Below, piece after piece: positions 2,065 to 62,933 of a stretch of DNA of 64,000 nucleotides (within the stretch, counting starts at the first letter, position 1; each line of letters opens with the position of its first letter). The stretch is from a phage. A program made the translations under genes and the position numbers. The stretch lies in sequence record PZ452610.1; one strand, given 5' to 3'. The notes under the pieces are model-generated. The model saw only the letters and a program-made list of their open reading frames with translations. It did not search any database and was not told the origin of the DNA.

Positions 2065-2108
2065 GCTAATTTCCTCAATTGATTAATGTTTTTGTAATCC
2101 ATGAGAGC

Positions 2109-2138
2109 ATTATACTCTGCTCTCAAGAGTTTGTACAA
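2109..2138 (-). promoter_or_regulatory. early-type sigma70 promoter cassette
   Basis: Minus strand TTGTACA -35-like and TATAAT -10 with 17-18 bp spacer; -10 in loop of GAGAGC/GCTCTC stem; near-identical copy at 47115-47144. Confidence 0.5.
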
Positions 2139-2140
2139 TT

Positions 2141-2341
2141 TTATTCGGTCATATCAGAACGTTCAAAAAGCTCTTCAACAGTTAAACATTCAGTGTCATC
2201 TTCAATAAAAAATCGAGTCCAACACGTTGGGGCGATACAGTTATGAGTTTGTCCGGCGATAGAAGCTACACGAATAAGCTGCTGACCATTATTCAGAACA
2301 AATTTTTCACCAATTTCAACATCTTTAAAAAGCTTAGCCAT
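2141..2341 (-). CDS. hypothetical protein (66 aa)
   Basis: ORF track; sits between two early-promoter cassettes. Confidence 0.45.
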   Translation of the reverse strand: MAKLFKDVEIGEKFVLNNGQQLIRVASIAGQTHNCIAPTCWTRFFIEDDTECLTVEELFERSDMTE

Positions 2342-2369
2342 TTTGTGTTCCTCATGTTTCAGTAGGACT

Positions 2370-2399
2370 ACTATACCATAATCCTACCTTGTTGTAAAC
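2370..2399 (-). promoter_or_regulatory. early-type promoter
   Basis: Minus strand GTTTAC, 18 bp, TATAGT. Confidence 0.5.
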
Positions 2400-2401
2400 A
2401 A

Positions 2402-2512
2402 TTAAATTACATTAAAATATGTTAAAGCCAACCATGTTCCAGTGAACGAACATGCAATGTAAAAACCCGTATCACAAATTGATCTTAGTACAATAAGAAG
2501 TGCATTTTTCAT
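2402..2512 (-). CDS. small ORF (36 aa)
   Basis: Sub-threshold ORF MKNALLIVLRSICDTGFYIA...; GAGGT RBS; ATGA overlap with upstream small ORF. Confidence 0.25.
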   Translation of the reverse strand: MKNALLIVLRSICDTGFYIACSFTGTWLALTYFNVI

Positions 2513-2595
2513 AAGTACCTCAACACAATTGAAAATATTATACAAATCATTGGGATACTAAGCAACCATATTCCGATCCACATTTTAGAGCTCAT
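2509..2595 (-). CDS. small membrane ORF (28 aa)
   Basis: MSSKMWIGIWLLSIPMICIIFSIVLRYL; ATGA overlaps with both neighbours. Confidence 0.25.
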   Translation of the reverse strand: MSSKMWIGIWLLSIPMICIIFSIVLRYL

Positions 2596-2855
2596 ATCTC
2601 AACTTCCGCGAGTTCCATATATCCTTTGTTGATAACCTCTTTAAGGTCTTTAGAAAGGATAACACTAAAATGGTCGTTCATATGTCCATTAACTAAACGA
2701 GTTATTTCGGCTTCAGATGACATATAAGGCACGTCTGAGTCCCAATGAGATAGACCCAAATGGGTATAAATCATCCCTTCGTCATCTGCAGTGTTGTACA
2801 TTGAAACAAATTCGCCTGTTACTTTATGTTTTGCGTAGAAAAATTTAAATTTCAT
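2592..2855 (-). CDS. hypothetical protein (87 aa)
   Basis: ORF track; downstream of early promoter at 2882-2911. Confidence 0.5.
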   Translation of the reverse strand: MKFKFFYAKHKVTGEFVSMYNTADDEGMIYTHLGLSHWDSDVPYMSSEAEITRLVNGHMNDHFSVILSKDLKEVINKGYMELAEVEI

Positions 2856-2881
2856 GATGTTATCCTCTTTTAGATAGGACT

Positions 2882-2911
2882 ACTATATCATAGTCCTACT
2901 TAGTTGTAAAC
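2882..2911 (-). promoter_or_regulatory. early-type promoter with stem-loop
   Basis: Minus strand GTTTAC, 18 bp, TATAGT; -10 flanked by TAGGACTA/TAGTCCTA inverted repeat. Confidence 0.5.
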
Positions 2912-2923
2912 ACTTTTATGAAA

Positions 2924-3400
2924 TTAAAGATGAAGATACCACCCGTTGTAGTTGCTCTTGCGGACGATTTTCTTTAGGTCTTCATGGTCTCCCACGAACT
3001 TTATAGAATAAGAGAAGACGTCAGGTGAGGTTTCTTTGACATCTAATATAATAATGCAATCTGCGACTCGATGGTTCAAGAAGGGCCCTATGTTGATTCC
3101 GTTGCCACCTGGATAATCACCACCGTATCCTGTGGTAACCGAAATCCATTTCGAATCCATCTGATGGGTCTTTACTTCTACGCGTAGACCACAGTACTTA
3201 GGATGAGCTAAAACGTCCCATGCATACGTGTACGGGTCTTCTACGTCTTCATTACCTTTATTAACATATCCGTCTAGCCAATTTGCTACTACATACTCTG
3301 CAAAGACTGCAACCTTACAACGTCGAACAACGTCTTCTTTTATTTGACCTGGATCTTGTTTCAACGAGTACCGAGCAGTATCAGCGATCTTAACCTTCAT
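2924..3400 (-). CDS. hypothetical protein (158 aa); positional candidate for denB but no motif support
   Basis: ORF track 2924..3544 trimmed to in-frame ATG at 3398-3400 to avoid 128-nt overlap with upstream ORF. Confidence 0.45.
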   Translation of the reverse strand: MKVKIADTARYSLKQDPGQIKEDVVRRCKVAVFAEYVVANWLDGYVNKGNEDVEDPYTYAWDVLAHPKYCGLRVEVKTHQMDSKWISVTTGYGGDYPGGNGINIGPFLNHRVADCIIILDVKETSPDVFSYSIKFVGDHEDLKKIVRKSNYNGWYLHL

Positions 3401-11265: not shown

Positions 11266-11492
11266 TAGTAAGTTTCCTTCCAATAAGTTGTACCGTTTTC
11301 AGTGATTTCACGGAAGATACCATAGATGGGCATTTCATCGCCAAGTTTTTCGTAAACGTAAACCACTTCGGTGTAGCATAAAAATTCGGTCCAGTTTTTC
11401 TGTACAACAACTAAATCAGGATTAAACAGAACATCTTCAAACTCATCGATGTTTGAATCGGTAGTTACGTTTTTAATGATTTGACGTTTCAT
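11265..11492 (-). CDS. hypothetical protein (75 aa)
   Basis: ORF track trimmed to MKRQII start (AGGAG RBS) downstream of early promoter 11521-11550. Confidence 0.5.
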
Positions 11493-11520
11493 AATATTCT
11501 CCTCTTGTTTTGATAGGTCT

Positions 11521-11550
11521 ATAGTATCATAGACCATAGTTGTTGTACAT
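11521..11550 (-). promoter_or_regulatory. early-type promoter with stem-loop
   Basis: Minus strand TGTACA, 18 bp, TACTAT; GGTCTAT/ATAGACC stem around -10. Confidence 0.45.
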
Positions 11551-12074
11551 CATTTTAGCAAAATAAAATCAACTTGTTCTGCCAATGAACGTCTAAACAT
11601 TAATTGACAACTTCCGAGTATGAAATCAGGTGCTTCATAGACCGCGATGTAGTATCCTTTAGCTTTCAAGAGTTCAACATCCACTTGGTCATCAAACCAT
11701 GCATAAACCGCGTCAACACTTTCAAATCCAAAATAGAACCCTTGAGCCCAATCTTCACTCAATTCAAATGTGTACTCAATTCTATGGTATCTTAAGATAT
11801 TTTGTTCAAGGAGTTTGTCTTCATTTACTGTAGGACGATTAGGGACATTATAGTTGTCGCCGTGATGGTAGAAGTTACCTGAGAGTATTCCATGCTTATC
11901 AAGGAATTCCCATGTTTCTTCAGAGTTGTCGGTGCCTGACCAACCGTACGGCGAGCGAGGTTCTTTATTCCAAGAGGTTTCCCAAATTCTGACGGCTTTA
12001 CCGTCTTCGATAGCAATTCCTGGTAATGATTCACGTTGAGTACAAAAACTACGTTCTACGCGGTAAACTAACAT
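11550..12074 (-). CDS. hypothetical protein (174 aa)
   Basis: ORF track; AGGAG RBS; early promoter upstream. Confidence 0.55.
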   Translation of the reverse strand: MLVYRVERSFCTQRESLPGIAIEDGKAVRIWETSWNKEPRSPYGWSGTDNSEETWEFLDKHGILSGNFYHHGDNYNVPNRPTVNEDKLLEQNILRYHRIEYTFELSEDWAQGFYFGFESVDAVYAWFDDQVDVELLKAKGYYIAVYEAPDFILGSCQLMFRRSLAEQVDFILLK

Positions 12075-12099
12075 ATTATTCTCCTCTGGTTGATATGGT

Positions 12100-12129
12100 T
12101 ATAATATCAAATCCAGAGGAGAAGTAAAC
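12100..12129 (-). promoter_or_regulatory. early-type promoter with stem-loop
   Basis: Minus strand GTTTAC, 17 bp, TATTAT; CCTCTGG/CCAGAGG inverted repeat spans the -10. Confidence 0.5.
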
Positions 12130-12133
12130 AACT

Positions 12134-12553
12134 TTATGCGAAAGCAGCTGGGCTATATTTTTTAATTTGGAATTCAGGAACTACCATGAACTGTCCAGCG
12201 AAAACAATGTTATAAAGCTTAACACCATCTTCTACCCAACGGTCGCTAATAAATCCGGCGATTTGCTTAGTTTTCCACGGTGTTCCATCAGTTGCCGCAG
12301 CAATAGTGAATTCATGGTCTTTTTCAACAGAAACTGATCTGCATAATCCCCATTTGAACGCTTTTTCTTCCGGTTCAATGAATTGGCTTTTAACGTAACC
12401 AATGTTACCATCAGCGTCACGAACTTTAACTTCGTTACGTCCAAAAACAGGATCACTCACAGAAAGAACTTCAACCAACTTCCCGGCAACTTTAGAGCGA
12501 GAAGCAACAGATACATATACGTAATCACCTGTAGAGAGATTTACAATATTCAT
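12134..12553 (-). CDS. hypothetical protein, tandem paralog 1 (139 aa)
   Basis: Shares GFISD.WVEDG.KLYNIVF.G.F.VV motif with next two ORFs. Confidence 0.55.
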   Translation of the reverse strand: MNIVNLSTGDYVYVSVASRSKVAGKLVEVLSVSDPVFGRNEVKVRDADGNIGYVKSQFIEPEEKAFKWGLCRSVSVEKDHEFTIAAATDGTPWKTKQIAGFISDRWVEDGVKLYNIVFAGQFMVVPEFQIKKYSPAAFA

Positions 12554-12562: not shown

Positions 12563-13018
12563 TTAAGCTTTACGAGGAGACACATAGCGAGTGATTTCAG
12601 ATTCTTTAACAACTCGGAAGTCACCTAAGAATACGATATTGTATAACTTTTCACCATCTTCAACCCATTGGTCACTAATGAAGCCACACATGGTATCAGT
12701 TGTGCTTGGATAGCCGTATTCATCGATGAAGTCAAATTCTTTATCAGTCTGGAATTCAACACCTTTACACAAGGCCCATTTGAACTGTGCATTAGGTTCA
12801 GTAGAAGCAAAATGAGCGCTCACATGAGTTTCCAAGAATTTAGGACTTACGTAAGCATATTGAGTATCCTGACGTCCAAAACTAGGAATGATTCGAACTT
12901 TAACTTCTTTAATACGTCCCATGCCATTTGTGCGAAGTCCGACAACTTCAACCAGACGACCTGCGGCTTTAGAACGGGATGCAGTTGATACACGCTTAAT
13001 TTCACCAATAGTAATCAT
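12563..13018 (-). CDS. hypothetical protein, tandem paralog 2 (151 aa)
   Basis: Paralog of 12134..12553 (STASRSKAAGRLVEV and C-terminal WVEDG motif). Confidence 0.55.
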   Translation of the reverse strand: MITIGEIKRVSTASRSKAAGRLVEVVGLRTNGMGRIKEVKVRIIPSFGRQDTQYAYVSPKFLETHVSAHFASTEPNAQFKWALCKGVEFQTDKEFDFIDEYGYPSTTDTMCGFISDQWVEDGEKLYNIVFLGDFRVVKESEITRYVSPRKA

Positions 13019-13046
13019 AATTTCTCTCTTTGTTTAAATTGAATTC

Positions 13047-13076
13047 ACTATACTCCATCCATCCTTGGATGTACAA
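13047..13076 (-). promoter_or_regulatory. early-type promoter
   Basis: Minus strand TTGTAC, 18 bp, TATAGT; ctccatccatccttggatgtac variant of the repeated cassette. Confidence 0.45.
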
Positions 13077-13078
13077 CA

Positions 13079-13573
13079 TTAATTTAGAATATTAACCACA
13101 GCACTACGTGGAACTACACTAAAATCACCTGCATGAACAACGTTCAGAAGTTCAACACCGTCTTCAATCCACTGGTCAGTTACCCAGCCACTTACCGGTC
13201 CAGCGAATGGTCGACGAATTGAAACTGCTTTACACAACAAGTCTGTAGGCTCGATAGGTTTAACTAAAGTACCGTACATAGAAGCGATGTCCATATCAAA
13301 GTGGAGACCATCTTTAACAGGTGCTTCTCCAATCAACAGTTCAAAGTCGGTGCTTGGAAGGGCGGTAGTAGAAATTGTACCATATGAATTTTTAATTTCT
13401 AAGAATAACCAAGGGCCTTCAGCTTGTTTGATGAAGTTAACAATAGTGAAACTATTACCTTGAGTGGCACCTAAAATTTCACAAAACTTTTCATAAGCTC
13501 GCACTGAAGCACCGTACCAGTTGATTTGTTTTTCGTCTTTCAGGATGTAAGTGGCCGTAGTATTGATATTCAT
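13079..13573 (-). CDS. hypothetical protein, tandem paralog 3 (about 164 aa)
   Basis: C-terminal GWVTDQWIEDGVELLNVVHAGDF related to the two upstream ORFs; start moved to MNINTT because the track start overlaps the promoter. Confidence 0.5.
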   Translation of the reverse strand: MNINTTATYILKDEKQINWYGASVRAYEKFCEILGATQGNSFTIVNFIKQAEGPWLFLEIKNSYGTISTTALPSTDFELLIGEAPVKDGLHFDMDIASMYGTLVKPIEPTDLLCKAVSIRRPFAGPVSGWVTDQWIEDGVELLNVVHAGDFSVVPRSAVVNILN

Positions 13574-13603
13574 AATGGTTTCCAGTTTGGTTAAGATAGA
13601 AAG

Positions 13604-13633
13604 ATTATACTCCAACCATCCTTGGTTGTAAAC
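13604..13633 (-). promoter_or_regulatory. early-type promoter (repeated cassette copy)
   Basis: Minus strand GTTTAC-aaccaaggatggttggag-TATAAT; same cassette at 55614 and 56634. Confidence 0.5.
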
Positions 13634-13638
13634 TGTTT

Positions 13639-14316
13639 TTATCGCTGTTTTACACTTAACGGGTCAGGATTCTCAGGGACATCTTCAAGGCCAAGCGCAT
13701 AACGCTGAGCATATTTTAACATCAAAATATCTTTAGCACAATCATGAATACTATCATGGGCAACGAATCCTTTTAGCGTACCCATCGGTAATGGACACAT
13801 ACTTAATCCTCGTGTCAACGAGTAAGCTTCGATTGCTGTACGAATATCACGTTGAGCCCAGAATTTAACCGGTTCTAATTTATCAGTATCAATATCTGGT
13901 TCAAGAACACCTTCATCACGATAGAGGTCACGAATCAAATCGACCAAGATCGGGAAGTCAAAGCTCATACCACGGCACCACATCTGTGATTTCCATTGGT
14001 CAACTTTATTAGCTCGACAATAATCTAAAAAGATTTTAATGCCTTCAAGCGTAGTGACATCGTCTTCAGACGGAGCCAAGTTTTTACGTGCTTCAGCCGA
14101 TTGTTCTTTCCACCATTTCATAGTGGATTTAGCGAAAACTCGCTTCCCTTTCTGAGAAGCTAAATTAAATTTAATTCGCTTACCTCGTTGAACAAGTTCT
14201 TCAAATGATTCAACAACTTCAGGGTCGGAATTATATGCAATAACCGCAAGGTCAATAACAGCCGCTTTTGATGTATTGCCGAATGTTTCAAAGTCTATAA
14301 TAACATCAGTGCTCAT
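13639..14316 (-). CDS. dexA: exonuclease A (DEDDh 3'-5' exonuclease)
   Basis: 225 aa; N-terminal IIDFETFG Exo I motif; position between motB-like region and dda as in T4. Confidence 0.8.
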   Translation of the reverse strand: MSTDVIIDFETFGNTSKAAVIDLAVIAYNSDPEVVESFEELVQRGKRIKFNLASQKGKRVFAKSTMKWWKEQSAEARKNLAPSEDDVTTLEGIKIFLDYCRANKVDQWKSQMWCRGMSFDFPILVDLIRDLYRDEGVLEPDIDTDKLEPVKFWAQRDIRTAIEAYSLTRGLSMCPLPMGTLKGFVAHDSIHDCAKDILMLKYAQRYALGLEDVPENPDPLSVKQR

Positions 14317-16696: not shown

Positions 16697-16746
16697 AATA
16701 TTTTCCTCTGTCTTACGGACGTTAAGGTCATTTAGCTGATAAGCTT

Positions 16747-48335: not shown

Positions 48336-48514
48336 GACTTAATTTCCTTCGCAATTGAACAGAAGATACCACGGTCACAAAGCATTTCACCAATTTCTGG
48401 ATATTTGATTGAACGGTACCAAACATCCAGGCTTGAAACTCTGGTTATCTGTACTGCATTACCGTTGACAGAATAGTACTGGTCAACCTTAATTTCTTTA
48501 TCTTCAATTGTCAT
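48332..48514 (-). CDS. hypothetical protein (60 aa)
   Basis: ORF track trimmed to MTIEDKEI start with AGGA RBS; early promoter upstream. Confidence 0.45.
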   Translation of the reverse strand: MTIEDKEIKVDQYYSVNGNAVQITRVSSLDVWYRSIKYPEIGEMLCDRGIFCSIAKEIKS

Positions 48515-48543
48515 TTTATTTTCCTCTGTGGTAGATGGTGTTA

Positions 48544-48572
48544 ATCTTAACATATCTATCGAGGATGTAAAC
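48544..48572 (-). promoter_or_regulatory. early-type promoter
   Basis: Minus strand GTTTAC, 17 bp, TAAGAT; AGGA RBS of 48332..48514 follows. Confidence 0.4.
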
Positions 48573-48681
48573 TGGTTTTATGAAAATATTTTTGATTTGA
48601 GAGGGGCACAAGGAGATAGTGAAGTGAAGATTCCAATGGATTATATTAGAAATGAGATAAAGAAGACCAGGCGGCACCTGG

Positions 48682-53014: not shown

Positions 53015-53185
53015 TCAATATTCTCTATAAAAGTTACGATGAGAACGTTTAGCTTTGCGAAGCTGACGTTTAGTAGGACGAACTGTAAATGGTTGTCCAG
53101 AGAAAAAATTCGGATCGGTTTTAATAAGCAAATACCAATCATGTTTGCCATTTTTTAATAAACGGTACAATAATTTAACTTGCAT
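53015..53185 (-). CDS. small basic protein (56 aa)
   Basis: ORF track trimmed to MQVKLLYRLLKNGKHDWYLL start; C-terminal RPTKRQLRKAKRSHRNFYREY; early promoter at 53225-53254. Confidence 0.4.
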   Translation of the reverse strand: MQVKLLYRLLKNGKHDWYLLIKTDPNFFSGQPFTVRPTKRQLRKAKRSHRNFYREY

Positions 53186-53200
53186 AATAATCTCTTCCCA
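53015..53200. repeat. duplicated small-gene segment (copy A; copy B at 52400-52570)
   Basis: Shared nucleotide blocks between the two regions; copy A has an intact 56-aa ORF. Confidence 0.4.
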
Positions 53201-53224
53201 TTTCCATATCAATTAATTCATTTA

Positions 53225-53254
53225 TTGAAGGTTCATCATAACACGTTTCTTCGT
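53225..53254 (-). promoter_or_regulatory. early-type promoter
   Basis: Minus strand GTTTAC, 18 bp, TATGAT upstream of small basic gene. Confidence 0.45.
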
Positions 53255-53313
53255 CGTTGTAAACTGTTTCGACGTCTGGCTCGACCGTCTCCCATCGAGC
53301 CGAATACCACGGT

Positions 53314-54641: not shown

Positions 54642-55585
54642 TATAACACCTCAATGGCATTTCGTAAACCATCCGCTTTCGCATTCAGAGCTTTTAACGA
54701 TTTAGTCTGTTCTTTAATCTGGGCTTCGACTTCTTTCAGACGAGATTTGAGATATTCGCGTTCTTCGGCCATGATATCGACCTTTTCTGCTTTAGGTTCT
54801 TTAATAGGCTTAAACACATTAGGGTTCTTCAGTTTAATTTTAATTCGAGAACTGAATAACATTGAACCGTTATCTTCGGTTTCGTCGAACATTTCAACAA
54901 CATCCATAGTCTGTAACATCATGCGAAGTTTATAAGACAGAGAACGAATGGTTTTGTTGCGCTTATTAATTTCTTCGGCTTTCATGGTACCGAGATTACG
55001 TGAGTAATAATAAGGAACCTGGATATCAATTGATAACGATGCGTTACCATTACCAGTTGGTTTGAATACTGCAGTAACCCAATCTTTAACATGAACTTTA
55101 TTTGTACGACCATCGCCGCCTGTGAATAATTTACGTGAATGTTTAAAAAGCATATTCACTTGGTTATTGAATTCACAAGCAAATTTATCAGCAAATTTAG
55201 TTTCAGGAATGGTGGAGAACCAATCAGCTAAATGAGTCTTTTTAACATCATTAACAATAGTGAATTCAACCAAATCGGTTTTAGATGTCACAGATTTAAT
55301 AAAGCTCGGTTTCATAAAGTTTTTAATGTTATCACGAGCCACAGTAGAAGATAATAAACGAGAACGTTTGAACCATTGAAGCAACGTCCCTAATGAATGA
55401 GAATATGCATTTTGAGTATCTTTACAGATATGATTTTCTTGGCCTGTGTATGTACCAAAATCGCGAAGAATACCACTTACTACATCTCGGTGTGGAACAT
55501 CAAATCCTAATGAACCAGAAGCACGTTGGGCATGAACGTTAGCGATAAGACCTGCAAAGTATTCAATGTAATGTGAACGTGTCAT
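54641..55585 (-). CDS. hypothetical protein (314 aa) with C-terminal coiled-coil-like tail
   Basis: ORF track; preceded by conserved promoter cassette. Confidence 0.55.
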   Translation of the reverse strand: MTRSHYIEYFAGLIANVHAQRASGSLGFDVPHRDVVSGILRDFGTYTGQENHICKDTQNAYSHSLGTLLQWFKRSRLLSSTVARDNIKNFMKPSFIKSVTSKTDLVEFTIVNDVKKTHLADWFSTIPETKFADKFACEFNNQVNMLFKHSRKLFTGGDGRTNKVHVKDWVTAVFKPTGNGNASLSIDIQVPYYYSRNLGTMKAEEINKRNKTIRSLSYKLRMMLQTMDVVEMFDETEDNGSMLFSSRIKIKLKNPNVFKPIKEPKAEKVDIMAEEREYLKSRLKEVEAQIKEQTKSLKALNAKADGLRNAIEVL

Positions 55586-55613
55586 AATATTTTCCTCTCG
55601 TTAAGATAGATTC

Positions 55614-55643
55614 ATTATACTCCAACCATCCTTGGTTGTAAAC
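55614..55643 (-). promoter_or_regulatory. early-type promoter (repeated cassette copy)
   Basis: Minus strand GTTTAC-aaccaaggatggttggag-TATAAT, identical core to 13604-13633. Confidence 0.5.
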
Positions 55644-55647
55644 TATT

Positions 55648-56607
55648 TTATGATTTTAACGCATTCATTGCGTTAAAAAGTTTAGAATACTGCAACTGGA
55701 GATTCGTTACAACACTTTGAGCATCACGAAGCTTAGCTTGTGCTTTGTCAAGTTCAACAGACAGTTGGTCCATAGTGGCCTTGATTTGATTGTAATGGTA
55801 ATCTTCGGCCGGAAGAAGGTCATTAGAAACATTTAGTTTTACTGCAGACAGTTTGCACACATTTGGCAAACCTTTAAACATTGATTTACCCGAAGTAGAA
55901 TAAGCACTTAGGACTTCGGCCTGTTCAATTGGGGTCCCAGTAAGCGATGCTTCAAACAATGCATTTTCCTTTTTAAGATTTTGATAATATTCGGAGTCTT
56001 TGTGCCACCATGGCGCAGGAACCTTTTTACCAATAGATACACGAGCCTGGATAGCGATATGGCCCTTATTCTTGATAAGGTCGATAATATTAAGCTCACG
56101 AGAATAAATCGCTTTAATCTGGTGGATATTATCACCTAAAACTTCCAACGCTTGGTGGAATACACGAGCGACATTATCATTCTTAGGTTTATACGTAAGA
56201 GTGAACTCATTCTCACTGATAACCATGATTTCCAACTTATCGTAAGTATATTTCAAATGTTTCATGTTAATTGCTTGAGGACGAATACGAGAAGCAATGG
56301 CCATCAGATTGTTAAGGTTATTCCGGAACTGCTTAGCGAAATATTGTCCTTCACCGCCAATACAAAAATTACGAAGTTTCTGTTTGGCCAATAAACGGCT
56401 GAACTCACCATTTTTAATGAACTCTTTAACGGGTGTGTTAGTAACGCATTCAAATTGAGTAAACTTACGAGAAGTAATCCCATAATATGAACAGATTTCC
56501 TCAATCTCTTCAGGAGTCTTTACAGGCATACGGATAGGATTAGGTCCTGGAGTATATGCGTTCGAGGTAAATTCTTTGATAAGTTCTCTACGTGTAATAA
56601 AAGCCAT
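55648..56607 (-). CDS. hypothetical protein (319 aa) with C-terminal coiled-coil-like tail
   Basis: ORF track; preceded by conserved promoter cassette. Confidence 0.55.
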   Translation of the reverse strand: MAFITRRELIKEFTSNAYTPGPNPIRMPVKTPEEIEEICSYYGITSRKFTQFECVTNTPVKEFIKNGEFSRLLAKQKLRNFCIGGEGQYFAKQFRNNLNNLMAIASRIRPQAINMKHLKYTYDKLEIMVISENEFTLTYKPKNDNVARVFHQALEVLGDNIHQIKAIYSRELNIIDLIKNKGHIAIQARVSIGKKVPAPWWHKDSEYYQNLKKENALFEASLTGTPIEQAEVLSAYSTSGKSMFKGLPNVCKLSAVKLNVSNDLLPAEDYHYNQIKATMDQLSVELDKAQAKLRDAQSVVTNLQLQYSKLFNAMNALKS

Positions 56608-56633
56608 TTTATATTCCTCATGTTGAAAAATTT

Positions 56634-56662
56634 ATTATACTCCAACCATCCTTGGTTGTACA
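56634..56662 (-). promoter_or_regulatory. early-type promoter (repeated cassette copy)
   Basis: Minus strand TGTACAACCAAGGATGGTTGGAGTATAAT. Confidence 0.5.
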
Positions 56663-57658
56663 TCATTCCTTAAGAAGTTTTACTACCTGAATAAGATTAG
56701 CTCGTTCTGTTTTATTTTTACCGTTTAAGCCTGCTAATCGTGAGATTTCATCGTCAGTCTGTTGAATAGTTACATTAAGTTCGTTAATCAAAGCTTCAAA
56801 GTATTTGATTTGCTCAGCATGTTTTGATTCAAATTTCTGAACCGGAATAACGTCTTGGTTCAGTTCATCAATAAGGTCTTTAAGAGCATCTTCTTGGTTG
56901 ATATCATATTCAACTTCTTTTATTTCTTCAACGAGCTCGTCTTTATATCTAACGTCTTTTAGTCCTGGAGCTGGTCCTGAAATCTCTTCTTTAAGAGTAC
57001 AAACATACCCAATACGGTATCCAACGCCGTCTCGCTTGATATCAACTTCGTCGATAAATCCACAATGTTTAAGTCCAGAGCCGATTATGTCAAAATATCC
57101 TTGACGTCGTCCTTCAAACGTTACACGAACTACTAAGACGGTTTTGCCACCGACCTTTTGAAGCTCACATTTATAAAAGTTTGTTGAACCTGAATAACAT
57201 GGATGAGTTTTAAAGTTCATCTGACGATCTAGGCCCATTTGTAAACGTGCTGTTACGGCCATAAAACGTGTTTGGTTCTCGTTAAGATGAGCAACAATCC
57301 ATTTCAAAGGCATTTTACCCTGTTCACGGCCGAACAAATCAGTACGTCCTAGATTACGCAGGATGTTGTTAGAGTTAATCATCGACAGAACGTTAAGTTT
57401 ATTCAGCGCGCTGAAGATTCCATCAGCCATTGATTTTCCATAACCTTTACACGCTTTAATAAGTGCTCGCGGCAGATTAGTATAGATTTCAGACGGCATA
57501 TGAAAATCAAATTTACTAGTCAGTAATTGATGAACTTGGATAGCAATTTGCTCATAATTAAGTGCTCTGCGATCGTTATGGTCTTTAAACCATACTTTAA
57601 TCTGTGAAGCACATAAACCGTTAATTTCATGTTTTACCGCATCAGATGTAATGCTCAT
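56663..57658 (-). CDS. hypothetical protein (331 aa) with C-terminal coiled-coil-like tail
   Basis: ORF track; preceded by a degenerate copy of the promoter cassette. Confidence 0.55.
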   Translation of the reverse strand: MSITSDAVKHEINGLCASQIKVWFKDHNDRRALNYEQIAIQVHQLLTSKFDFHMPSEIYTNLPRALIKACKGYGKSMADGIFSALNKLNVLSMINSNNILRNLGRTDLFGREQGKMPLKWIVAHLNENQTRFMAVTARLQMGLDRQMNFKTHPCYSGSTNFYKCELQKVGGKTVLVVRVTFEGRRQGYFDIIGSGLKHCGFIDEVDIKRDGVGYRIGYVCTLKEEISGPAPGLKDVRYKDELVEEIKEVEYDINQEDALKDLIDELNQDVIPVQKFESKHAEQIKYFEALINELNVTIQQTDDEISRLAGLNGKNKTERANLIQVVKLLKE

Positions 57659-57720: not shown

Positions 57721-58248
57721 TTATGCGTGAACCGACTTTAAACGTTCTTCAAATTTCCGAAGAGTACTAATACGTTCTGCTTTCTGTTTTGTATAGTTTG
57801 CAATACGTTCTGAAGTGAGAGCGTATCGTTCGTTTACTGTTTCTTTCATGAAGTCAGGGATTTCACGAGAAGCTTTAATTTCATCAAACTTATCGAGTAC
57901 TGCCTGGTCTTCAGCAATTAAATTTTCGTACATCTCGATATCTTTCTTGATGAAGTCGATATCTTCCTGGGTTACTTTGGATAAACGAGATGCTTTATCC
58001 TTTTTGTACTGCTCGTTAGTTTCACGAGACCAGAATAATGTACGTTTTTTGTTAGTGTTTTTGTAGACTTCCACAATTCCAACTGAATCGATGATAACAA
58101 TCCAATTCCAGCGAGATTTGAAAATCTGACCTCCGTCCACGGTAATCTCGTTACCATAAGCAATGTCATTAAAGAACTTACTTTGTGCTTCGGATTTAAA
58201 TTTACCGTCGTTATAATTTACCAGGTTGAAAATATCTTTAGCGTTCAT
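57721..58248 (-). CDS. hypothetical protein (175 aa) with C-terminal coiled-coil-like half
   Basis: ORF track; GAGGT RBS; early promoter at 58276-58304. Confidence 0.55.
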   Translation of the reverse strand: MNAKDIFNLVNYNDGKFKSEAQSKFFNDIAYGNEITVDGGQIFKSRWNWIVIIDSVGIVEVYKNTNKKRTLFWSRETNEQYKKDKASRLSKVTQEDIDFIKKDIEMYENLIAEDQAVLDKFDEIKASREIPDFMKETVNERYALTSERIANYTKQKAERISTLRKFEERLKSVHA

Positions 58249-58275
58249 GTTTTACCTCCAGTAGTTGATAGGTCT

Positions 58276-58304
58276 ATAATAACATAACCATAGACCTTGT
58301 AAAC
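58276..58304 (-). promoter_or_regulatory. early-type promoter with stem-loop (repeated cassette)
   Basis: Minus strand GTTTAC, 17 bp, TATTAT; GGTCTAT/ATAGACC stem; copy of 25125-25174. Confidence 0.5.
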
Positions 58305-58306
58305 AA

Positions 58307-58594
58307 CTAAAAGAAACTTTTTTCGGTATTTTTTCCACTGAACCAAACAGACTTCGGGATTTTTTGTAATTTTTCAGATTTAAGTTTCTCTTCCTGTTCT
58401 TTCTTATATACACCCTTGTCGTACTGGAGCATCTCTATGACATTCTTTTGCAAACGATCTAAGGTAATTAAGGCTTTAGTTTTTCCTTTCAAGGAAGAGT
58501 CCTGGCGAACCTCCTCGCTATATTGCATTGTAGAACTAACCATACGATGAGCATAGAGTTCGACTGCGGCTTTAATTTTTTGCATAAAATCCAT
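58307..58594 (-). CDS. hypothetical protein (95 aa)
   Basis: ORF track; AGAGGA RBS. Confidence 0.45.
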   Translation of the reverse strand: MDFMQKIKAAVELYAHRMVSSTMQYSEEVRQDSSLKGKTKALITLDRLQKNVIEMLQYDKGVYKKEQEEKLKSEKLQKIPKSVWFSGKNTEKSFF

Positions 58595-58732: not shown

Positions 58733-59734
58733 TTATTTCAGTAAAGTAACTTCCGAGATTTCTTCCCAACCATCTTTATCAGTTGAAATAAAATCTGCTA
58801 CATAAAGAGCCGTACGTAATGATACATTGCGAAGACGAGATACGTTAGCCTTCATCCAGGACAATGCTTTATACGTTTCTGCATCCGTCAGACCACGTTT
58901 CTGCATCATGTCAGTAGATAATATTACATCTTCAACTCGAACCATAATCTCTTCATTAGAGTGTACTCCAAGGTCGAGATACACTGAACGAGATACTAAA
59001 GCTTGAAGGTGTGGAGCAAGTTTCGAACCCCGTTCTAACTCTTTATCGATATCAACGTTTGTAATGAAAACGATAGTACCTTCAAACTCAAATTCTTTAT
59101 CAATACCCTTATCCTCGAGATAAGATGACGCAGTGCTCCAACAAACTTTGCGTTTATCTCCGGTATCTAATGCTGCTTTAAGAAGGTTCAGGATGTCCAT
59201 ATCTGAGAATACGTCAACGTCATCGATTAAGAGAACGCTGTCTTCATCACGGTTGAGCCAAAGTTGTTCGTAAAGGCCAATACCAGAGATTTTACCATTA
59301 ATGCTTTTGTATTTGATGAAACCATTATCATTAGCATTATTAAGTGCTTTATCCAGAGAATACGTCTTACCAATACCAGCTGCACCTGAAATAATGAGTG
59401 AACGAATTTTGCCATCGATAATGCCATTCGTCATCATGTTCATTACTTTAAAGCGTTTGTTGATACGGGTTTTCATATCTTCAGTGCTTTCAACAACTGC
59501 AACTGGTGATGTCTCAACTCCTTCCATTACGATGTCTGATTTGAAGACCCATACTCCACGTTCAGAACCATCAATCATAACGAAAATTTTACCATCACCT
59601 AAGTGGGAACATTCAGGATTAAGCTTTGCCGGGAACCAGGTCTTTGTGGCAACATAAGAACCAGAGATTTCGTTATTACGATAGATACCTTTTTTGATTT
59701 GAACGTTGAACATTTTATTCTCCAATTTACTCAT
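58733..59734 (-). CDS. P-loop NTPase (AAA-like ATPase) of unknown function
   Basis: 333 aa; Walker A SGAAGIGKTYS, Walker B VLLIDDVD; about 100-aa N-terminal extra domain. Confidence 0.6.
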   Translation of the reverse strand: MSKLENKMFNVQIKKGIYRNNEISGSYVATKTWFPAKLNPECSHLGDGKIFVMIDGSERGVWVFKSDIVMEGVETSPVAVVESTEDMKTRINKRFKVMNMMTNGIIDGKIRSLIISGAAGIGKTYSLDKALNNANDNGFIKYKSINGKISGIGLYEQLWLNRDEDSVLLIDDVDVFSDMDILNLLKAALDTGDKRKVCWSTASSYLEDKGIDKEFEFEGTIVFITNVDIDKELERGSKLAPHLQALVSRSVYLDLGVHSNEEIMVRVEDVILSTDMMQKRGLTDAETYKALSWMKANVSRLRNVSLRTALYVADFISTDKDGWEEISEVTLLK

Positions 59735-59751
59735 TTCGTTTCGATAGGTCT

Positions 59752-59780
59752 ATAGTATCATATCCTAAAAGCATGTACAC
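59752..59780 (-). promoter_or_regulatory. early-type promoter upstream of P-loop ATPase gene
   Basis: Minus strand GTGTAC, 17 bp, TACTAT. Confidence 0.45.
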
Positions 59781-59807
59781 TACTTTTTAAAAATATTTTA
59801 ACCCCCT

Positions 59808-59827
59808 AAAGGGACCCGAAGGTCCCC
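59808..59827 (-). terminator. UUCG-tetraloop hairpin after secreted-protein gene
   Basis: Minus strand GGGACC-UUCG-GGUCCC then UUUAGGGGG. Confidence 0.45.
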
Positions 59828-61119: not shown

Positions 61120-61589
61120 TTAGCCTTATATTCAAGAGTAGGACAGACTTTTTCTTTACGAGCTTTAAGGTATTCGCCTATTAATGATTTCTTACGTTCA
61201 ATAGGCTCAAGTCCATTTTTAATTCGTTCTTGGTTTTGCGCAATGAGCTCAATTTCTTTATAATATTTTCTGTCGTTATATTTGTCTAACAACCAAGACG
61301 GACCAATTACCAACCCGGTAGCAATAAAAGCCATGACTGCTACAATTAAAATGCCTACACCAATTGAGGCTGGAACTAATGTCCATAGACTGCTAAAAAC
61401 AAAGAATTTAGTTAAAATTTCCTGGCCAATGATTGTGACTGCTGCTAAAATCGCAAATCCAATAATTGAAACAGCCAATACCGGGATTAACGTTTTCCAA
61501 AAATAAGCACACAACGTTTTCGGACGATTCCATGTACTATTGAACGCGGCATAAATTTTAAAGTGCCAAGAGTTTTCATTGATAATCAT
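61116..61589 (-). CDS. membrane protein (157 aa)
   Basis: ORF track; several hydrophobic helices; stop overlaps NTase start. Confidence 0.55.
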   Translation of the reverse strand: MIINENSWHFKIYAAFNSTWNRPKTLCAYFWKTLIPVLAVSIIGFAILAAVTIIGQEILTKFFVFSSLWTLVPASIGVGILIVAVMAFIATGLVIGPSWLLDKYNDRKYYKEIELIAQNQERIKNGLEPIERKKSLIGEYLKARKEKVCPTLEYKAK

Positions 61590-61598
61590 AATAATTCC

Positions 61599-62129
61599 TT
61601 ATTTCAAAGTTGGGATAATAGAATCGAGATAAGCTTTAAGAGCAACTGCTTCATCTTTGTCTAATGTAACGATATGTTGACGAAGGTCATCAATTTGACG
61701 AATAACTACAACATCGCCATCTTCATAAGAAGGATTAACGCCTAGGACCGTTGTATAGTCAGGGCGGTCCTGATTTGTAATAAAAGCATTACGGCATTTA
61801 GCCCATTGAAGTTTGGCCTTTTTGGCTATTTCAGATTCCATTAATTCTTTCACCTTAGTGACGAATGTTTTCCAATTATTGATAGAAAGGCATTCATCTT
61901 CTGTTTCGATATTAACCCCACTATAAAGACCGTGATAAAAACGAACTTGAAGGTCTTCATCGATGTTAATTACAGATGCATGGCCTGGCGGATTGAGTTT
62001 CAAAATCTTGTCCAGTTCCATAGGAAGAATAGTAACAGAATCATCTTCTTGTGTCAGAACGTAAGCATAACCACGTTTTTCGATACATAAATCACCAAAC
62101 AACTCGGTTGTTTCAATTACAATTTTCAT
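61599..62129 (-). CDS. hypothetical protein (176 aa)
   Basis: ORF track trimmed to MKIVIE start with GGTGA RBS. Confidence 0.5.
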   Translation of the reverse strand: MKIVIETTELFGDLCIEKRGYAYVLTQEDDSVTILPMELDKILKLNPPGHASVINIDEDLQVRFYHGLYSGVNIETEDECLSINNWKTFVTKVKELMESEIAKKAKLQWAKCRNAFITNQDRPDYTTVLGVNPSYEDGDVVVIRQIDDLRQHIVTLDKDEAVALKAYLDSIIPTLK

Positions 62130-62130
62130 A

Positions 62131-62310
62131 TTATTCACCAATTAAAGTTTCAACAAAATTCACCAAAGCATTCTGGCACGCATCAACCTGATTTTCATAA
62201 AAGTCTCCGTTATCATTTACCGCGTGATAAGCTACATCATTCAAATCTGAATCGGCTTCACGTAGGTCACGGATAAGGTCCATCAATTTATTAGCTTGTT
62301 CACGGGTCAT
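62131..62310 (-). CDS. small acidic protein (59 aa)
   Basis: Sub-threshold ORF MTREQANKLMDLIRDLREADSDLNDVAYHAV... Confidence 0.35.
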   Translation of the reverse strand: MTREQANKLMDLIRDLREADSDLNDVAYHAVNDNGDFYENQVDACQNALVNFVETLIGE

Positions 62311-62445
62311 TTTACCATACTCGTTTCAATAAGATTCACTATGCCGTTTACCATGTTATAAGTAAACATCGGATAATTGTATTGTACTACAACATAAGCG
62401 ATAAGCAAAAGTTTCATTTTGTTCTCCGTTTGTTTTGGTAGGACT

Positions 62446-62475
62446 ACTATAACATAGTCCTACCAAGATGTAAAC
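62446..62475 (-). promoter_or_regulatory. early-type promoter with stem-loop
   Basis: Minus strand GTTTAC, 18 bp, TATAGT; GTAGGACTA/TAGTCCTAC 9-bp inverted repeat around -10. Confidence 0.5.
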
Positions 62476-62681
62476 TACCGATTGTGTTTTAAATGTTGAT
62501 AAAGTTCTTCAACTTGTTTTGGGTCTAAAACAATTAGGTCATTTTCTTGGCGAAGATAAATCCATCCCTTATCCCCAGGACCATTTTTACAAAACATTGC
62601 CACCATATCATCATCTTCAGCGCTTTCAGGTAAAAGTTCAAGCACACCGTCTTCAGATTTTCTAGTATAATCGTAAAGCAT
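62475..62681 (-). CDS. hypothetical protein (68 aa)
   Basis: ORF track trimmed to MLYDYTRK start with GAGGA RBS. Confidence 0.45.
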   Translation of the reverse strand: MLYDYTRKSEDGVLELLPESAEDDDMVAMFCKNGPGDKGWIYLRQENDLIVLDPKQVEELYQHLKHNR

Positions 62682-62688
62682 AATATCC

Positions 62689-62868
62689 TCACATAATCTC
62701 GTTAACATACATTTGCAATTCAGTGTGGGCGTCGGCCATCTTTTTCATAGCTCTGTTAATGTCGATGTCTCCATCTTCGCACCCATGAGCATTTTCCCAA
62801 TCAGATACCGCATTAGCATACTCTTCAATCAAAAACATCAACTTAGAAATCTTTTCTTTACGTGTCAT
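62689..62868 (-). CDS. small protein (59 aa)
   Basis: Sub-threshold ORF MTRKEKISKLMFLIEEYANAV...; AGGAG RBS downstream of promoter 62896-62924. Confidence 0.35.
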   Translation of the reverse strand: MTRKEKISKLMFLIEEYANAVSDWENAHGCEDGDIDINRAMKKMADAHTELQMYVNEIM

Positions 62869-62895
62869 AGCGTTCTCCTATAGTAAGTAAGGACT

Positions 62896-62924
62896 ACTAT
62901 AACACAACCTGAGGAGAAGTAAAC
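62896..62924 (-). promoter_or_regulatory. early-type promoter following terminator
   Basis: Minus strand GTTTAC, 17 bp, TATAGT, then AGGAG RBS and ATG at 62866-62868. Confidence 0.5.
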
Positions 62925-62933
62925 TGATAGATG

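Follow-up and report, generated by a model that had tools for sequence, protein, structure and literature searches.

The repeated minus-strand promoter cassettes described here very probably serve an RB69-like T-even phage as its early promoters, packaged as expression modules of the promoter early stem-loop (PeSL) type that recombine between copies. The window, i.e., the whole 64,000-base stretch of DNA analyzed, shows 3 mismatches over its length to E. coli O157 typing phage 6 (Mosigvirus), which is itself ~96-97% identical to RB69. It covers the early genes of a coliphage of the RB69 type.

Early-promoter cassettes in the window

A cassette matrix made of two blocks (a -35 block and a -10 block separated by a gap of 16-19 nt) was trained iteratively and applied with a cut-off of 12 bits. 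This weight-matrix search, suggested together with the original prediction, returned 31 sites on the minus strand of the 64-kb window and 0 on the plus strand, against 0.52 on average and never more than 2 in 50 dinucleotide shuffles. The sites at 58619, 54669, 50012, and 19360 were dropped as cassettes, as they fall within coding sequence or overlap it and have no start codon at a suitable distance. The 27 credible cassettes are each found 32-67 nt upstream of an annotated ATG; 20 of them have the first base of the -10 at 32-36 nt from the ATG, and the remaining 7 have it at 39-67 nt. About 25 minus-strand copies spanning 2100-62930 had been predicted, in good agreement with these 27, which cover 2109-62924. 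The cassette-free stretch at 25,608-47,115 corresponds to the core replication genes 41 to 55. A scan of the window with a generic sigma-70 consensus gave no excess over shuffles (63 vs 63.6; 71 vs 70.3); the enrichment belongs only to the phage-specific motif and not to the generic consensus.

The -35 element is GTTTAC in 18 cassettes, GTGTAC in 4, ATGTAC and TTGTAC in 2 each, and AAGTAA in 1, while the -10 element is TATAGT or TATAAT (6 each), TATTAT (5), TACTAT or TATGAT (4 each), or TAAGAT (2). The predicted 17-18 bp spacing holds in all 27, with a gap after GTTTAC of 18 nt in 18/27 and of 17 nt in 9/27. TGn is present in 18/27 cassettes, and the upstream sequence is 75% A+T vs 63% for the window. 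Base-for-base and one-to-one, 24 cassettes coincide with the RB69 early promoters predicted in 2006 (Nolan et al.), which supports their reading as T4-type early promoters. The weak cassette before gene 61 (22130..22208; -10 22166-22171), which has a poor -35 (AAGTAA) and a hairpin (GGCCTTA/TAAGGCC) downstream of the -10, is absent from the 2006 predictions. The cassette before srd (16694..16789; -35 16770-16775, -10 16747-16752) lies at a long distance, 56 nt, from its ATG. The sites carry every sequence feature of T4-type early promoters, from which their start sites and early timing may be inferred.

A module opens with an A/T-rich UP-like tract and the -35 (GTTTAC). Its spacer, 17-18 bp long and in most cases with TGn at its end, leads to the -10 (TAnnnT), behind which come a start region of conserved sequence (a-n-a-C-c-T-A-t-c-a-a), ~15 nt of leader, a GAGG/GGAG Shine-Dalgarno, and the ATG. 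By analogy with T4, unmodified host sigma-70 RNA polymerase would fire the cassettes immediately after infection. The genes behind them had been described as small accessory genes; they are accessory, but their products are not shorter than those of the remaining genes (medians of 122 and 107 aa, respectively; p = 0.95).

Hairpins in the cassettes

Folding of 20 cassettes against shuffles gave z <= -2.3 in 10, -1.7 to -1.9 in 3, and nothing in 7. In ~10 cassettes (13 with the borderline ones), the spacer pairs either with bases immediately past the -10 or with the Shine-Dalgarno, which places the -10 in the loop. The claim that many -10 elements sit in hairpins is therefore correct for ~10-13 of the 27 cassettes, but at least 14 have no significant hairpin; only ~40-50% of the copies carry a significant one.

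Hairpins around the -10 are found before ndd (cassette 2138, 2062..2152; -35 2133-2138, -10 2109-2114; GAGAGC/GCTCTC, z -2.3), ndd.1 (cassette 2399, 2339..2413; -35 2394-2399, -10 2370-2375; GGTAGGATTAT/ATAGTAGTCCTAC with one G.U pair, z -3.4), the RB69ORF270c homologue (cassette 2911, 2853..2925; -35 2906-2911, -10 2882-2887; TAGGACTAT/ATAGTCCTA, z -2.8), cef (cassette 11550, 11490..11564; -35 11545-11550, -10 11521-11526; GGTCTATG/CTATAGACC, z -2.3), and sp (cassette 23862, 23801..23876; -35 23857-23862, -10 23833-23838; GGACTAT/ATAGTCC, z -2.5). The same arrangement is seen before nrdC.8 (cassette 58304, 58246..58318; -35 58299-58304, -10 58276-58281; GGTCTATGG/TTATAGACC, z -2.3), before a 36-aa ORF upstream of tk.1 (cassette 62475, 62415..62489; -35 62470-62475, -10 62446-62451; a 13-bp stem TTGGTAGGACTAT/ATAGTCCTACCAA, -20.6 kcal/mol, z -6.4), and in the cassette serving 55.4, inside the end of the upstream gene (47776..47883; -35 47864-47869, -10 47840-47845; AGAGTAT/ATACTTCT). 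The inverted repeats first quoted all exist, namely TAGGACTA/TAGTCCTA at 2911, 23862, and 62475 (with the variant TAGGATTA at 2399), CCGGTAGTTG/CAACTACCGG at 25174, and GGTCTAT/ATAGACC at 58304 and 11550.

The Shine-Dalgarno takes part in the pairing before the RB69ORF040c homologue (cassette 25174, 25117..25188; -35 25169-25174, -10 25146-25151), where a 12-14 bp stem CTCCGGTAGTTG/CAACTACCGGAG sequesters it (-22.4 kcal/mol, z -7.2), and before motB.2 (12072..12143; -35 12124-12129, -10 12101-12106), where CTCCTCTGG in the spacer is paired to CCAGAGGAG, the Shine-Dalgarno (-22.9 kcal/mol, z -6.9). Before 55.6 (48512..48586; -35 48567-48572, -10 48544-48549), spacer CCTC pairs with Shine-Dalgarno GAGG, plus an inner stem (z -4.5). 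Borderline values were obtained before the RB69ORF041c homologue (25547..25631; -35 25603-25608, -10 25579-25584; TTCCTCT with AGAGGAA, z -1.9), modA (17456..17530; -35 17511-17516, -10 17487-17492; weak pairing, z -1.9), and modB (18095..18167; -35 18148-18153, -10 18125-18130; CCCTCCTC in the spacer, opposite GGAGG, z -1.7). The motB cassette (13016..13090; -35 13071-13076, -10 13047-13052) has a small hairpin within its spacer (ATCCAAGGATGGAT), and no hairpin was obtained on folding those of imm (24113..24187; -35 24168-24173, -10 24144-24149) and imm.1 (24543..24617; -35 24598-24603, -10 24574-24579).

It is very unlikely that these hairpins are functionless by-products of cassette duplication and of a -10 region that is in part a palindrome, with the promoter alone mattering. 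About half of the cassettes lack a significant hairpin, as such an origin would allow. Within the genus, substitutions are no rarer in MFE-paired columns (64 per 900) than in the unpaired ones (54 per 929), and some of them break strong stems, e.g., in phage SF in cassette 62475 and RB69 A42C in cassette 25174. However, pairing between upstream and downstream halves is stronger in cognate combinations (-5.9 kcal/mol) than in chimeras (-3.5 kcal/mol; z = -5.0, p < 5e-5). This was replicated (z = -5.9) in the T-even phage HP3, which has ~82% identity over the matching parts of the nrdC region and different arm sequences. The stem of cassette 25174 has one pair that is G-C in the window, A-U in RB69 and phiEC1, and U-A in T4, a compensatory pattern that argues against a by-product. 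So does the pairing of one downstream half by two different spacer solutions: nrdC.8 of other T-evens has CTCCAGTAG/CTACTGGAG in place of GGTCTATGG/TTATAGACC. In IMG/VR, a complementary 5' arm is present in the spacer of 16/18 distinct sequences with the 3' half CCTATCAACTACNGGAG, and the free stem position is paired in 16/16 (U-A, A-U, or G.U); one variant has two G.U pairs in the stem. Several G-C to G-U changes also separate orthologous cassettes.

These G.U pairs, which are mismatches in duplex DNA, also bear on a highly improbable reading of the repeats as palindromic operators, in which a dimeric phage or host DNA-binding protein, for example the factor behind the still unexplained early-promoter shut-off, would sit on the -10. 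Cassettes 2399, 2911, 23862, and 62475 do share nearly the same palindrome at the same spacing (TAGGACTAT-N4-6-ATAGTCCTA), and the T4 shut-off mechanism is "not completely understood" (PMC3014915). Yet the arm sequences are wholly different between cassette families and phages while pairing is kept. In addition, the arm spacing varies from 4 to >20 nt and the 3' arm is the Shine-Dalgarno in several cassettes, which indicates an RNA-level constraint.

We propose that RNA hairpins would insulate the ~10-13 modules whose spacer is complementary to the start region or the Shine-Dalgarno. A module's own transcript, predicted to start ~7 nt after the -10, would lack the 5' arm and stay unfolded and translatable. 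Read-through from the upstream gene would carry both arms and fold, and the hairpin may then attenuate or block upstream-derived expression by pausing, termination, or burial of the Shine-Dalgarno where this is the 3' arm. It should be noted that the -10-enclosing hairpins have no U run and that none was called as an intrinsic terminator in a scan of the window, so "terminator" is a putative label for them.

Repeated copies and recombination among relatives

The largest direct-repeat families of the window are cassettes, and an independent direct-repeat search returns them as families D1-D5, D7, D9, and D14. The near-identities reported earlier (2105-2138 vs 47111-47144; 25125-25160 vs 58247-58282; 13600-13633 vs 55610-55643 vs 56630-56662) were all verified. 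The 55.2 cassette (47144, 47075..47158; -35 47139-47144, -10 47115-47120) is almost identical to the ndd cassette from the -35 to just past the -10. Cassettes 58304 and 25174 have identical 3' halves, and the 3' half CCTATCAACTACNGGAG is found before six different genes. A 27-nt identical core, TACAACCAAGGATGGTTGGAGTATAAT, is common to the cassettes before motB.1 (13633, 13571..13647; -35 13628-13633, -10 13604-13609), nrdC.3 (55643, 55583..55657; -35 55638-55643, -10 55614-55619), and nrdC.5 (56663, 56605..56677; -35 ATGTAC 56658-56663, -10 56634-56639).

As the modules have 25-45 nt of near-identical sequence in common, homologous recombination of the phage crosses over between them, and intervening genes are deleted, inserted, or exchanged. 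Three junction sequences show this step; each marks a gene deletion or replacement, found in a comparison with seven relatives, whose crossover lies within a pair of cassettes. Phage F2 lacks 55641-56633, a deletion of nrdC.5 whose partners are cassettes 55643 and 56663 and whose junction lies inside the 27-nt core. In phage EP02SG, 25130-25544 is missing, and the junction falls within the Shine-Dalgarno regions of the two cassettes. The hybrid cassette before nrdC.10 (59780, 59711..59827; -35 59775-59780, -10 59752-59757) is made up of two RB69 cassettes that flank ORF102c: its upstream half is that of the ORF102c cassette, and its downstream half that of the nrdC.10 cassette. In phage SF, which lacks 53032-53202, the deletion ends in the cassette before the small ORF 53015-53185 (53183..53278; -35 53259-53264, -10 53235-53240). 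RB69 has an extra gene, 61.4 (203 nt), inserted ~15-20 nt upstream of the -35 of the imm.1 cassette.

Canonical terminators lie directly upstream of the -35 of the mrh.2 cassette (19574..19672; -35 19629-19634, -10 19605-19610; GC stem and T run at 19651-19672), directly upstream of the RB69ORF041c-homologue cassette (GGAGAC-TTCG-GTCTCC and T run, 25616-25631), and upstream of nrdC.10 (59811-59827). The mobD.2a cassette (62866..62963; -35 62919-62924, -10 62896-62901) also has an upstream terminator (AGCCCC...GGGGCT and T run, 62935-62963), and phage LF82-2 carries a 594-nt insertion between two copies of it.

The predicted shuffling of accessory genes at cassettes thus stands as far as these junctions go, but without a significant enrichment of breakpoints. 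Among ~17 structural differences in the seven relatives, a cassette is touched in only ~6-9, and a rough hand tally with a binomial estimate on this small sample gave ~9/15 events at cassettes vs ~41% expected (p ~0.1), not significantly above other gene junctions. Site-specific shuffling, with cruciforms or single-strand hairpins read by a structure-specific nuclease or recombinase, was raised by the PeSL authors for the conserved GGGG...CCCC stems of RB49, and the window encodes endonuclease VII and the gp46/47 nuclease, but it is barely credible here, as the three junctions fall where sequence is shared, be it the 27-nt core, the -10/start region, or the Shine-Dalgarno, and at no fixed stem position, another event made use of a duplicated terminator and not of a promoter hairpin, and the G.U pairs favor RNA.

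Comparison with known systems

The -35/-10/stem-loop architecture of the window falls inside the PeSL family, in line with the proposed resemblance; the family is known from RB49/phi1, T4/PST, and KVP40/nt-1 in the papers that defined the composite and its gene-shuffling role (Arbiol et al. 2010, PMC2839356; Comeau et al. 2014, PMC4122927). The RB49/phi1 elements were reported there to act as promoters and to show terminator-like activity. Both sets combine an A/T-rich tract, a strong sigma-70-type promoter, a stem-loop (often between the -35 and -10 or overlapping the -10), a Shine-Dalgarno, and an ATG, and are repeated in variable early regions, where crossovers between elements, from the -10 to the ATG, delete or exchange intervening ORFs. 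In contrast to those elements, the cassettes belong to a Mosigvirus lineage, mentioned in neither paper; their -35 is GTTTAC as in T4 rather than TTGACA as in RB49, their stems are A/T-rich and phage-specific rather than GGGG/CCCC, and in a subset the Shine-Dalgarno itself is the 3' arm.

The catalogued T4 and RB69 early promoters (Nolan et al. 2006, PMC1524935; Hinton 2010, PMC2988021) share the UP-like tract, GTTTAC at -36 to -31, TGn, the -10, and a C-rich -3 to -1, and the 24 matching sites are orthologues of the RB69 "Pe" predictions. These catalogues treat the promoter only, whereas complementarity between spacer and downstream sequence and recombination between promoters go unmentioned.

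The 1986 GenBank entry X04567 (T4 58.3-65.5 kb early region) records inverted repeats A/A', B/B', C/C', and D/D' at ipIII, ipII, denV, and orf61.9, annotated by the depositors as potential terminators of the upstream gene. As in the window, the 5' arm lies in the promoter spacer with the -10 in the loop, and at denV and orf61.9 the 3' arm holds the RBS. Over 63 nt, the denV cassette matches 25116-25175 (cassette 25174) at 84% identity, although it precedes denV in T4 and unrelated ORFs in the window.

RBS-sequestering hairpins with a nested promoter are known for T4 genes e, soc, 49, and I-TevI (PMC3014915). Long transcripts fold there and hide the Shine-Dalgarno, and those begun within the hairpin, being without its 5' strand, are translated. 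The nested promoter is late in those genes (TATAAATA) and gives temporal control, whereas it is early in the window, so the same logic would separate a module's own transcript from read-through within the early period. Nothing here is new in kind, being preceded by the X04567 hairpins (1986), the 2006 RB69 predictions, and the PeSL papers (2010, 2014): the motif set is a known T4-family module used by recombination to swap accessory genes, real but ordinary.

Promoter motif and copy number

Starting from a regular-expression seed, a two-block weight matrix was trained by iteration and used to scan the window. It detected 31 minus-strand sites and no plus-strand site above 12 bits, compared with 0.52 sites on average and at most 2 in 50 dinucleotide-preserving shuffles. 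The scores were sharply bimodal (33 sites above 8 bits, 31 above 14 bits). A strikingly fixed distance separates 27 of the 31 sites from an annotated start codon, and in 20 of these 27 cassettes the first base of the -10 and the ATG are 32-36 nt apart. The 4 other sites fall within coding sequence and have no ATG at the proper spacing; they probably represent internal promoters or matches by chance. The original prediction had described recurrent minus-strand -35/-10 cassettes and had called for such a matrix search against shuffled sequence; on both counts it was borne out, and the observation of early-promoter cassettes is real and its first interpretation correct. It should be noted that a generic TTGACA/TATAAT sigma-70 scan of the window gave no excess over shuffles and is therefore useless for this motif, which requires a phage-specific matrix.

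The cassettes, designated here by the upper coordinate of their -35 element, carry GTTTAC as the -35 in 18/27 cases and G/A/T-TGTAC in 8/27, while all 27 -10 boxes read TAnnAT or TAnnGT. The gap after GTTTAC is 17 or 18 nt, in keeping with the 17 +/- 1 bp spacer (counted from TTTACA) of T4-type early promoters, and an extended -10 (TGn) is present in 18/27. The 20 nt upstream of the -35 form an UP-like tract, with an A+T content of 75% vs 63% window-wide. The motif order is thus an A-rich tract, GTTTAC, TGn, TAnnnT, and a conserved start region (a-n-a-C-c-T-A-t-c-a-a). An independent repeat search recovered the cassettes as the largest direct-repeat families of the window (D1-D5, D7, D9, and D14), and the three groups of near-identical copies were confirmed as first described.

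All cassettes lie on the coding strand, directly upstream of orthologs of T4 early genes, including ndd, cef, motB, srd, modA, modB, sp, imm, and nrdC.x genes. The 27 copies fall into six clusters, with none between 25,608 and 47,115 (genes 41 to 55). Of the 41 intergenic gaps with a length of 45 nt or more, 25 hold a cassette. Twenty-four coincide exactly with coordinates of early promoters (Pe) predicted for RB69, 58 in all (Nolan et al. 2006, PMC1524935). Cassette 59780 lies in a rearranged segment without RB69 mapping; each half corresponds to one of the two RB69 cassettes on either side of ORF102c, at which Nolan 2006 (PMC1524935) predicts two further promoters, Pe:55018 and Pe:55296. The description of the genes served as small did not hold, as their sizes do not differ from those of the remaining genes. 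The presence of paralogous genes behind near-identical cassettes was also rejected: BLASTP of the downstream proteins gave only two matches, modA/modB (whose cassettes differ) and a weak, 38-aa match of motB vs motB.1.

Annotation and RB69 gene names delineate a classical T-even early region, with 52, ndd, denB, rIIB/rIIA, 39, motB, dexA, dda, srd, modA/modB, mrh, soc, 56, 61, sp, imm, dmd, 41, uvsX, the arabinosyl-hmC sugar cluster, 43, regA, 62, 44, 45, 46, 47, 55, nrdH/G/D, 49, pin, nrdC.x, and rI to tk. Every annotated gene except one is on the minus strand; the sole plus-strand gene is a homolog of RB69ORF029w (65 aa, 20916-21113), convergent with gene 61. In a megablast search with 20000-32000, E. 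coli O157 typing phages 3, 6, and 13 were 100% identical, and many other Mosigvirus genomes matched at 97-98.5%. The whole window differs from the RefSeq genome of O157 typing phage 6 (NC_041864.1, 12549-76548) by 3 bases, at 2482, 12789, and 51327, and RB69 is 96-97.7% identical to it in pairwise blastn. An Rfam search of the whole window returned no family at gathering thresholds.

Hairpins around the -10 and conservation of pairing

The stretch from the spacer to the ATG was folded, and z was calculated against shuffles. The predicted placement of the -10 within a stem-loop in many copies stood for 10 cassettes at z <= -2.3, in which the hairpin encloses or overlaps the -10: 25174 (-7.2), 12129 (-6.9), 62475 (-6.4), 48572 (-4.5), 2399 (-3.4), 2911 (-2.8), 23862 (-2.5), and 58304, 11550, and 2138 (-2.3 each). 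It was borderline in 3 further cassettes (-1.7 to -1.9) and failed in 7, which gave no hairpin signal against shuffles. Two main geometries were observed. The first is a short stem with its 5' arm in the spacer and its 3' arm at about -7 to +3, which puts the -10 in the loop or at the loop edge (TAGGACTAT/ATAGTCCTA and GGTCTAT/ATAGACC are examples). The second is a long-range stem joining a CTCC-type spacer with the GGAG/GAGG Shine-Dalgarno (SD) sequence, as in cassettes 25174, 12129, 25608, and 48572. A third geometry, in cassettes 13076, 13633, 55643, and 56663, is a small hairpin entirely within the spacer, and about 8 cassettes have no stem-loop. In folds of the long transcript, the SD or AUG is predicted to lie in a stable helix in 25174 (-22.4 kcal/mol), 12129 (-22.9), and 48572 (-11.5); predicted SD sequestration is weak in 25608 and 17516.

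The -10-enclosing stems have no U run, and none was called as an intrinsic terminator in scans of the window; they are therefore not ordinary terminators, and this candidate explanation was dismissed. Canonical terminators, with a G+C-rich stem and a U run, are separate elements found directly upstream of cassettes 19634, 25608, 59780, and 62924. None of these 4 cassettes has a significant hairpin vs 10 of the 23 others (hand-computed hypergeometric p ~0.14), so that mutual exclusion of upstream terminator and embedded hairpin is only a trend.

When upstream and downstream halves were exchanged among the 27 cassettes, the cross-pairing gain was -5.9 kcal/mol for native halves vs -3.5 for random partners (z = -5.0, p < 5e-5). 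The same swap test gave z = -5.9 in HP3, a T-even phage with ~82% identity over those parts of the nrdC region that match. In HP3, the matrix found 26 sites on one strand and 0 on the other and the hairpin arm sequences differ from those of the window. The complementarity of spacer and downstream sequence is selected.

In cassette 25174, one position of the stem is G-C in the window; RB69 and phiEC1 have A-U there, and the T4 denV cassette has U-A. A scan of IMG/VR with the stem flanks alone fixed returned 17 instances, the free pair being complementary in 17/17 (10 U-A, 7 A-U). With only the 3' half (CCTATCAACTACNGGAG) fixed, 18 distinct sequences with six different downstream genes were found. 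A complementary 5' arm is present in the spacer of 16 of them, one variant having two G.U pairs; of the two others, one carries an alternative GGTCTATGG/TTATAGACC hairpin, as does window cassette 58304, and one has no hairpin. Several G-C to G-U changes occur in the stems of Mosigvirus orthologs, and the G.U pairs, together with the strand asymmetry, favor an RNA-level constraint on the sense strand. Against such a constraint, MFE-paired and unpaired columns have similar substitution rates within the genus, a comparison left uninformative by noise from the MFE structures of weak cassettes, and a few relatives have stem-breaking changes; selection is thus not strict at every copy. Judged by covariation, the -10-enclosing hairpins appear to be selected for pairing.

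Three minus-strand intergenic gaps without an early cassette (41399-41452, 46183-46254, and 57659-57720) contain a MotA-box-like AAACGCTTTA or GTGCTTTAA at middle-promoter distance from a -10. In two of them, this -10 is again looped out by a hairpin (GATGTGGT-TATAATG-ACCACATC and TAGGTCT...AGACCTA). The three gaps are reminiscent of the 'PmSL' middle-promoter stem-loops of phage nt-1. At 47384-47446 (minus strand), just upstream of an SD and ATG, CGATAGGAAG ... CTTCCTATCG form an inverted repeat of 10 bp without mismatch around a loop of 12 nt (ATAATAACATGA). The matrix scan called no promoter at this position, about which RB69 Pe:42816 (Nolan 2006), matched by no cassette, falls by coordinate offset only. 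An 11-bp inverted repeat at 7132-7223 of the minus strand (GGCACTATTAC ... GTAATAGTGCC, arms ~37 nt apart) lies in the cassette-free gap between rIIA.1 and the RB69ORF003c homolog.

Recombination junctions among relatives

The window was compared over its full length with RB69, EP02SG, and phiEC1, and over 52300-64000 only with SF, F2, LF82-2, and WFbE185. Of ~17 distinct structural differences among these seven relatives, 3 are clean cassette-by-cassette insertions, deletions, or replacements. Phage F2 lacks 55641-56633 (nrdC.5), with its junction within a 27-nt identical core common to cassettes 56663 and 55643. EP02SG lacks 25130-25544 (ORF041c homolog), with its junction in the SD regions of cassettes 25608 and 25174. 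Finally, ORF102c lies between two cassettes in RB69 and WFbE185, and the window has the single hybrid cassette 59780, with a crossover at the -10/TATAGACCTATC region. The proposal that the cassettes are sites of accessory-gene shuffling is upheld by these three junctions, each lying inside two cassettes, and recombination within shared sequence is directly observed, as are the motif, its strand bias, and its geometry.

Other events touch cassettes less cleanly: in RB69, an inserted gene, 61.4, lies ~15-20 nt upstream of the cassette 24603 -35 element, a deletion in SF terminates in cassette 53264, and LF82-2 has an insertion between two copies of the terminator preceding cassette 62924. This 594-nt insertion (LF82-2 10790-11383 vs window 62934-62964) contains a 558-nt gene preceded by a late-promoter-like TATAAATA and has a copy of the 29-nt terminator AGCCCCTTCC..GGGGCTTTTT at each end, which indicates that terminators, besides promoter cassettes, act as recombination linkers. 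By our rough tally over the seven genomes, ~6-9 of the ~17 events touch cassettes and ~9-10 are unrelated to them. A rough estimate of breakpoint enrichment relative to gene junctions (~41% expected for whole-gene events, p ~0.1) was not significant. The junction sequences thus show the recombination mechanism in operation.

Among the remaining differences, a 191-nt segment with two tiny ORFs (52409-52599) is absent from F2, LF82-2, and phiEC1 and has no cassette at either end; 52423-52478 forms a 73% direct repeat (family D11) with 53026-53081, in the small ORF 53015-53185. EP02SG has two internal deletions, 17551-18053 (503 nt), which removes most of modB, and 19005-19199 (195 nt), which removes parts of two small mrh-region ORFs. 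Their junctions are intragenic with just 5-9 nt of overlap, and both are illegitimate or microhomology events unrelated to cassettes.

Possible role of the hairpins and relation to known modules

T4-type early promoters are served by the unmodified host RNA polymerase in the first minute after infection, and chloramphenicol does not affect this. By analogy with T4, the cassettes would be immediate-early promoters used by the host sigma-70 polymerase, with a transcription start at the A of CCTATC, ~7 nt downstream of the -10. With such a start, a module's own transcript would lack the 5' arm, and read-through RNA would have both arms and fold. The hairpin may insulate each module against upstream transcription, by SD occlusion where the 3' arm is the SD, as in T4 e/soc/49/I-TevI, and elsewhere perhaps by pausing, attenuation, or 3'-end stabilization. 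Three other explanations are disfavored, namely that the palindromes are DNA-level recombination signals, an operator for a DNA-binding protein, or functionless by-products. Arm sequences are diverse while pairing is conserved, stems contain G.U pairs and compensatory changes, and junctions fall in shared sequence with no fixed stem position, all of which argue against the three jointly.

We consider it possible, though short of probable, that the hairpins are transcript-origin filters, by which translation of an accessory gene would be confined to RNA made from its own early promoter. RNA reading through from early or middle promoters further upstream would fold and hide the GGAG/GAGG SD from ribosomes and RegB. 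If true, the late-gene logic known from T4 e, soc, 49, and I-TevI would hold for the early class as well, and such filtering would explain the free recombination of cassettes, every gene having its own complete on/off context. GGAG, the target motif of the RegB endoribonuclease, serves as SD in 12/27 cassettes (for example, at 62868, 62417, 25119, 12074, and 11492), and regB of RB69 lies just outside the window. Because RegB is inhibited by secondary structure (PMC3014915), GGAG in SD-sequestering hairpins would be protected on read-through RNA.

Current understanding of T-even biology is unaltered by these results; what is new is limited to the documentation in Mosigvirus, the three explicit recombination junctions, and the covariation support for -10-enclosing hairpins. 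Mosigvirus (RB69-like) phages join the lineages whose promoter cassettes also act as recombination linkers, which is of use in annotating early transcription units and in predicting sites of accessory-gene gain or loss in therapeutic T4-like phages.

Related elements were already noted in T4 record X04567 (1986), which lists inverted repeats A/A', B/B', C/C', and D/D' whose loops hold the -10 and, at denV and orf61.9, the ribosome-binding site in the 3' arm; its depositors took the stem-loops to be possible terminators of the gene upstream. Over 63 nt, the T4 denV cassette and window 25116-25175 share 84% identity, and the downstream genes are unrelated. The T4 e/soc/49/I-TevI hairpins contain a nested late promoter (TATAAATA), translation being off early and on late, whereas the nested promoters here are early-class (-35 GTTTAC); the window elements would thus work like this family without being members.

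The cassettes are T4-type early promoters organized as promoter-early stem-loop (PeSL) modules, an already described class defined by an A/T-rich tract, a strong early promoter, a stem-loop, an SD, and an ATG (Arbiol et al. 2010, PMC2839356). In that study, the stem-loop is mostly between the -35 and -10 or overlaps the -10, reporters showed promoter plus terminator-like activity, and crossovers lie between the -10 and ATG; the published evidence for attenuation/termination is a lacZ assay of one RB49 element. Mini-circles that arise when neighboring elements recombine are a further trait of the class. PeSLs also occur in T4/PST and KVP40/nt-1 and were predicted for all T4-like phages (Comeau et al. 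2014, PMC4122927); RB69-like phages are unmentioned in both papers (PMC2839356, PMC4122927). The ~8 cassettes without a stem-loop resemble the 'degraded' PeSLs of Comeau et al. 2014 (PMC4122927), and the definition allows five stem-loop positions relative to the promoter. The likeness to PeSL modules first proposed extends to composite, distribution, and junctions: the window cassettes combine an A/T-rich tract, early promoter, stem-loop, SD, and start codon, and, as for PeSLs, their many copies lie in hyperplastic regions, not core gene blocks.
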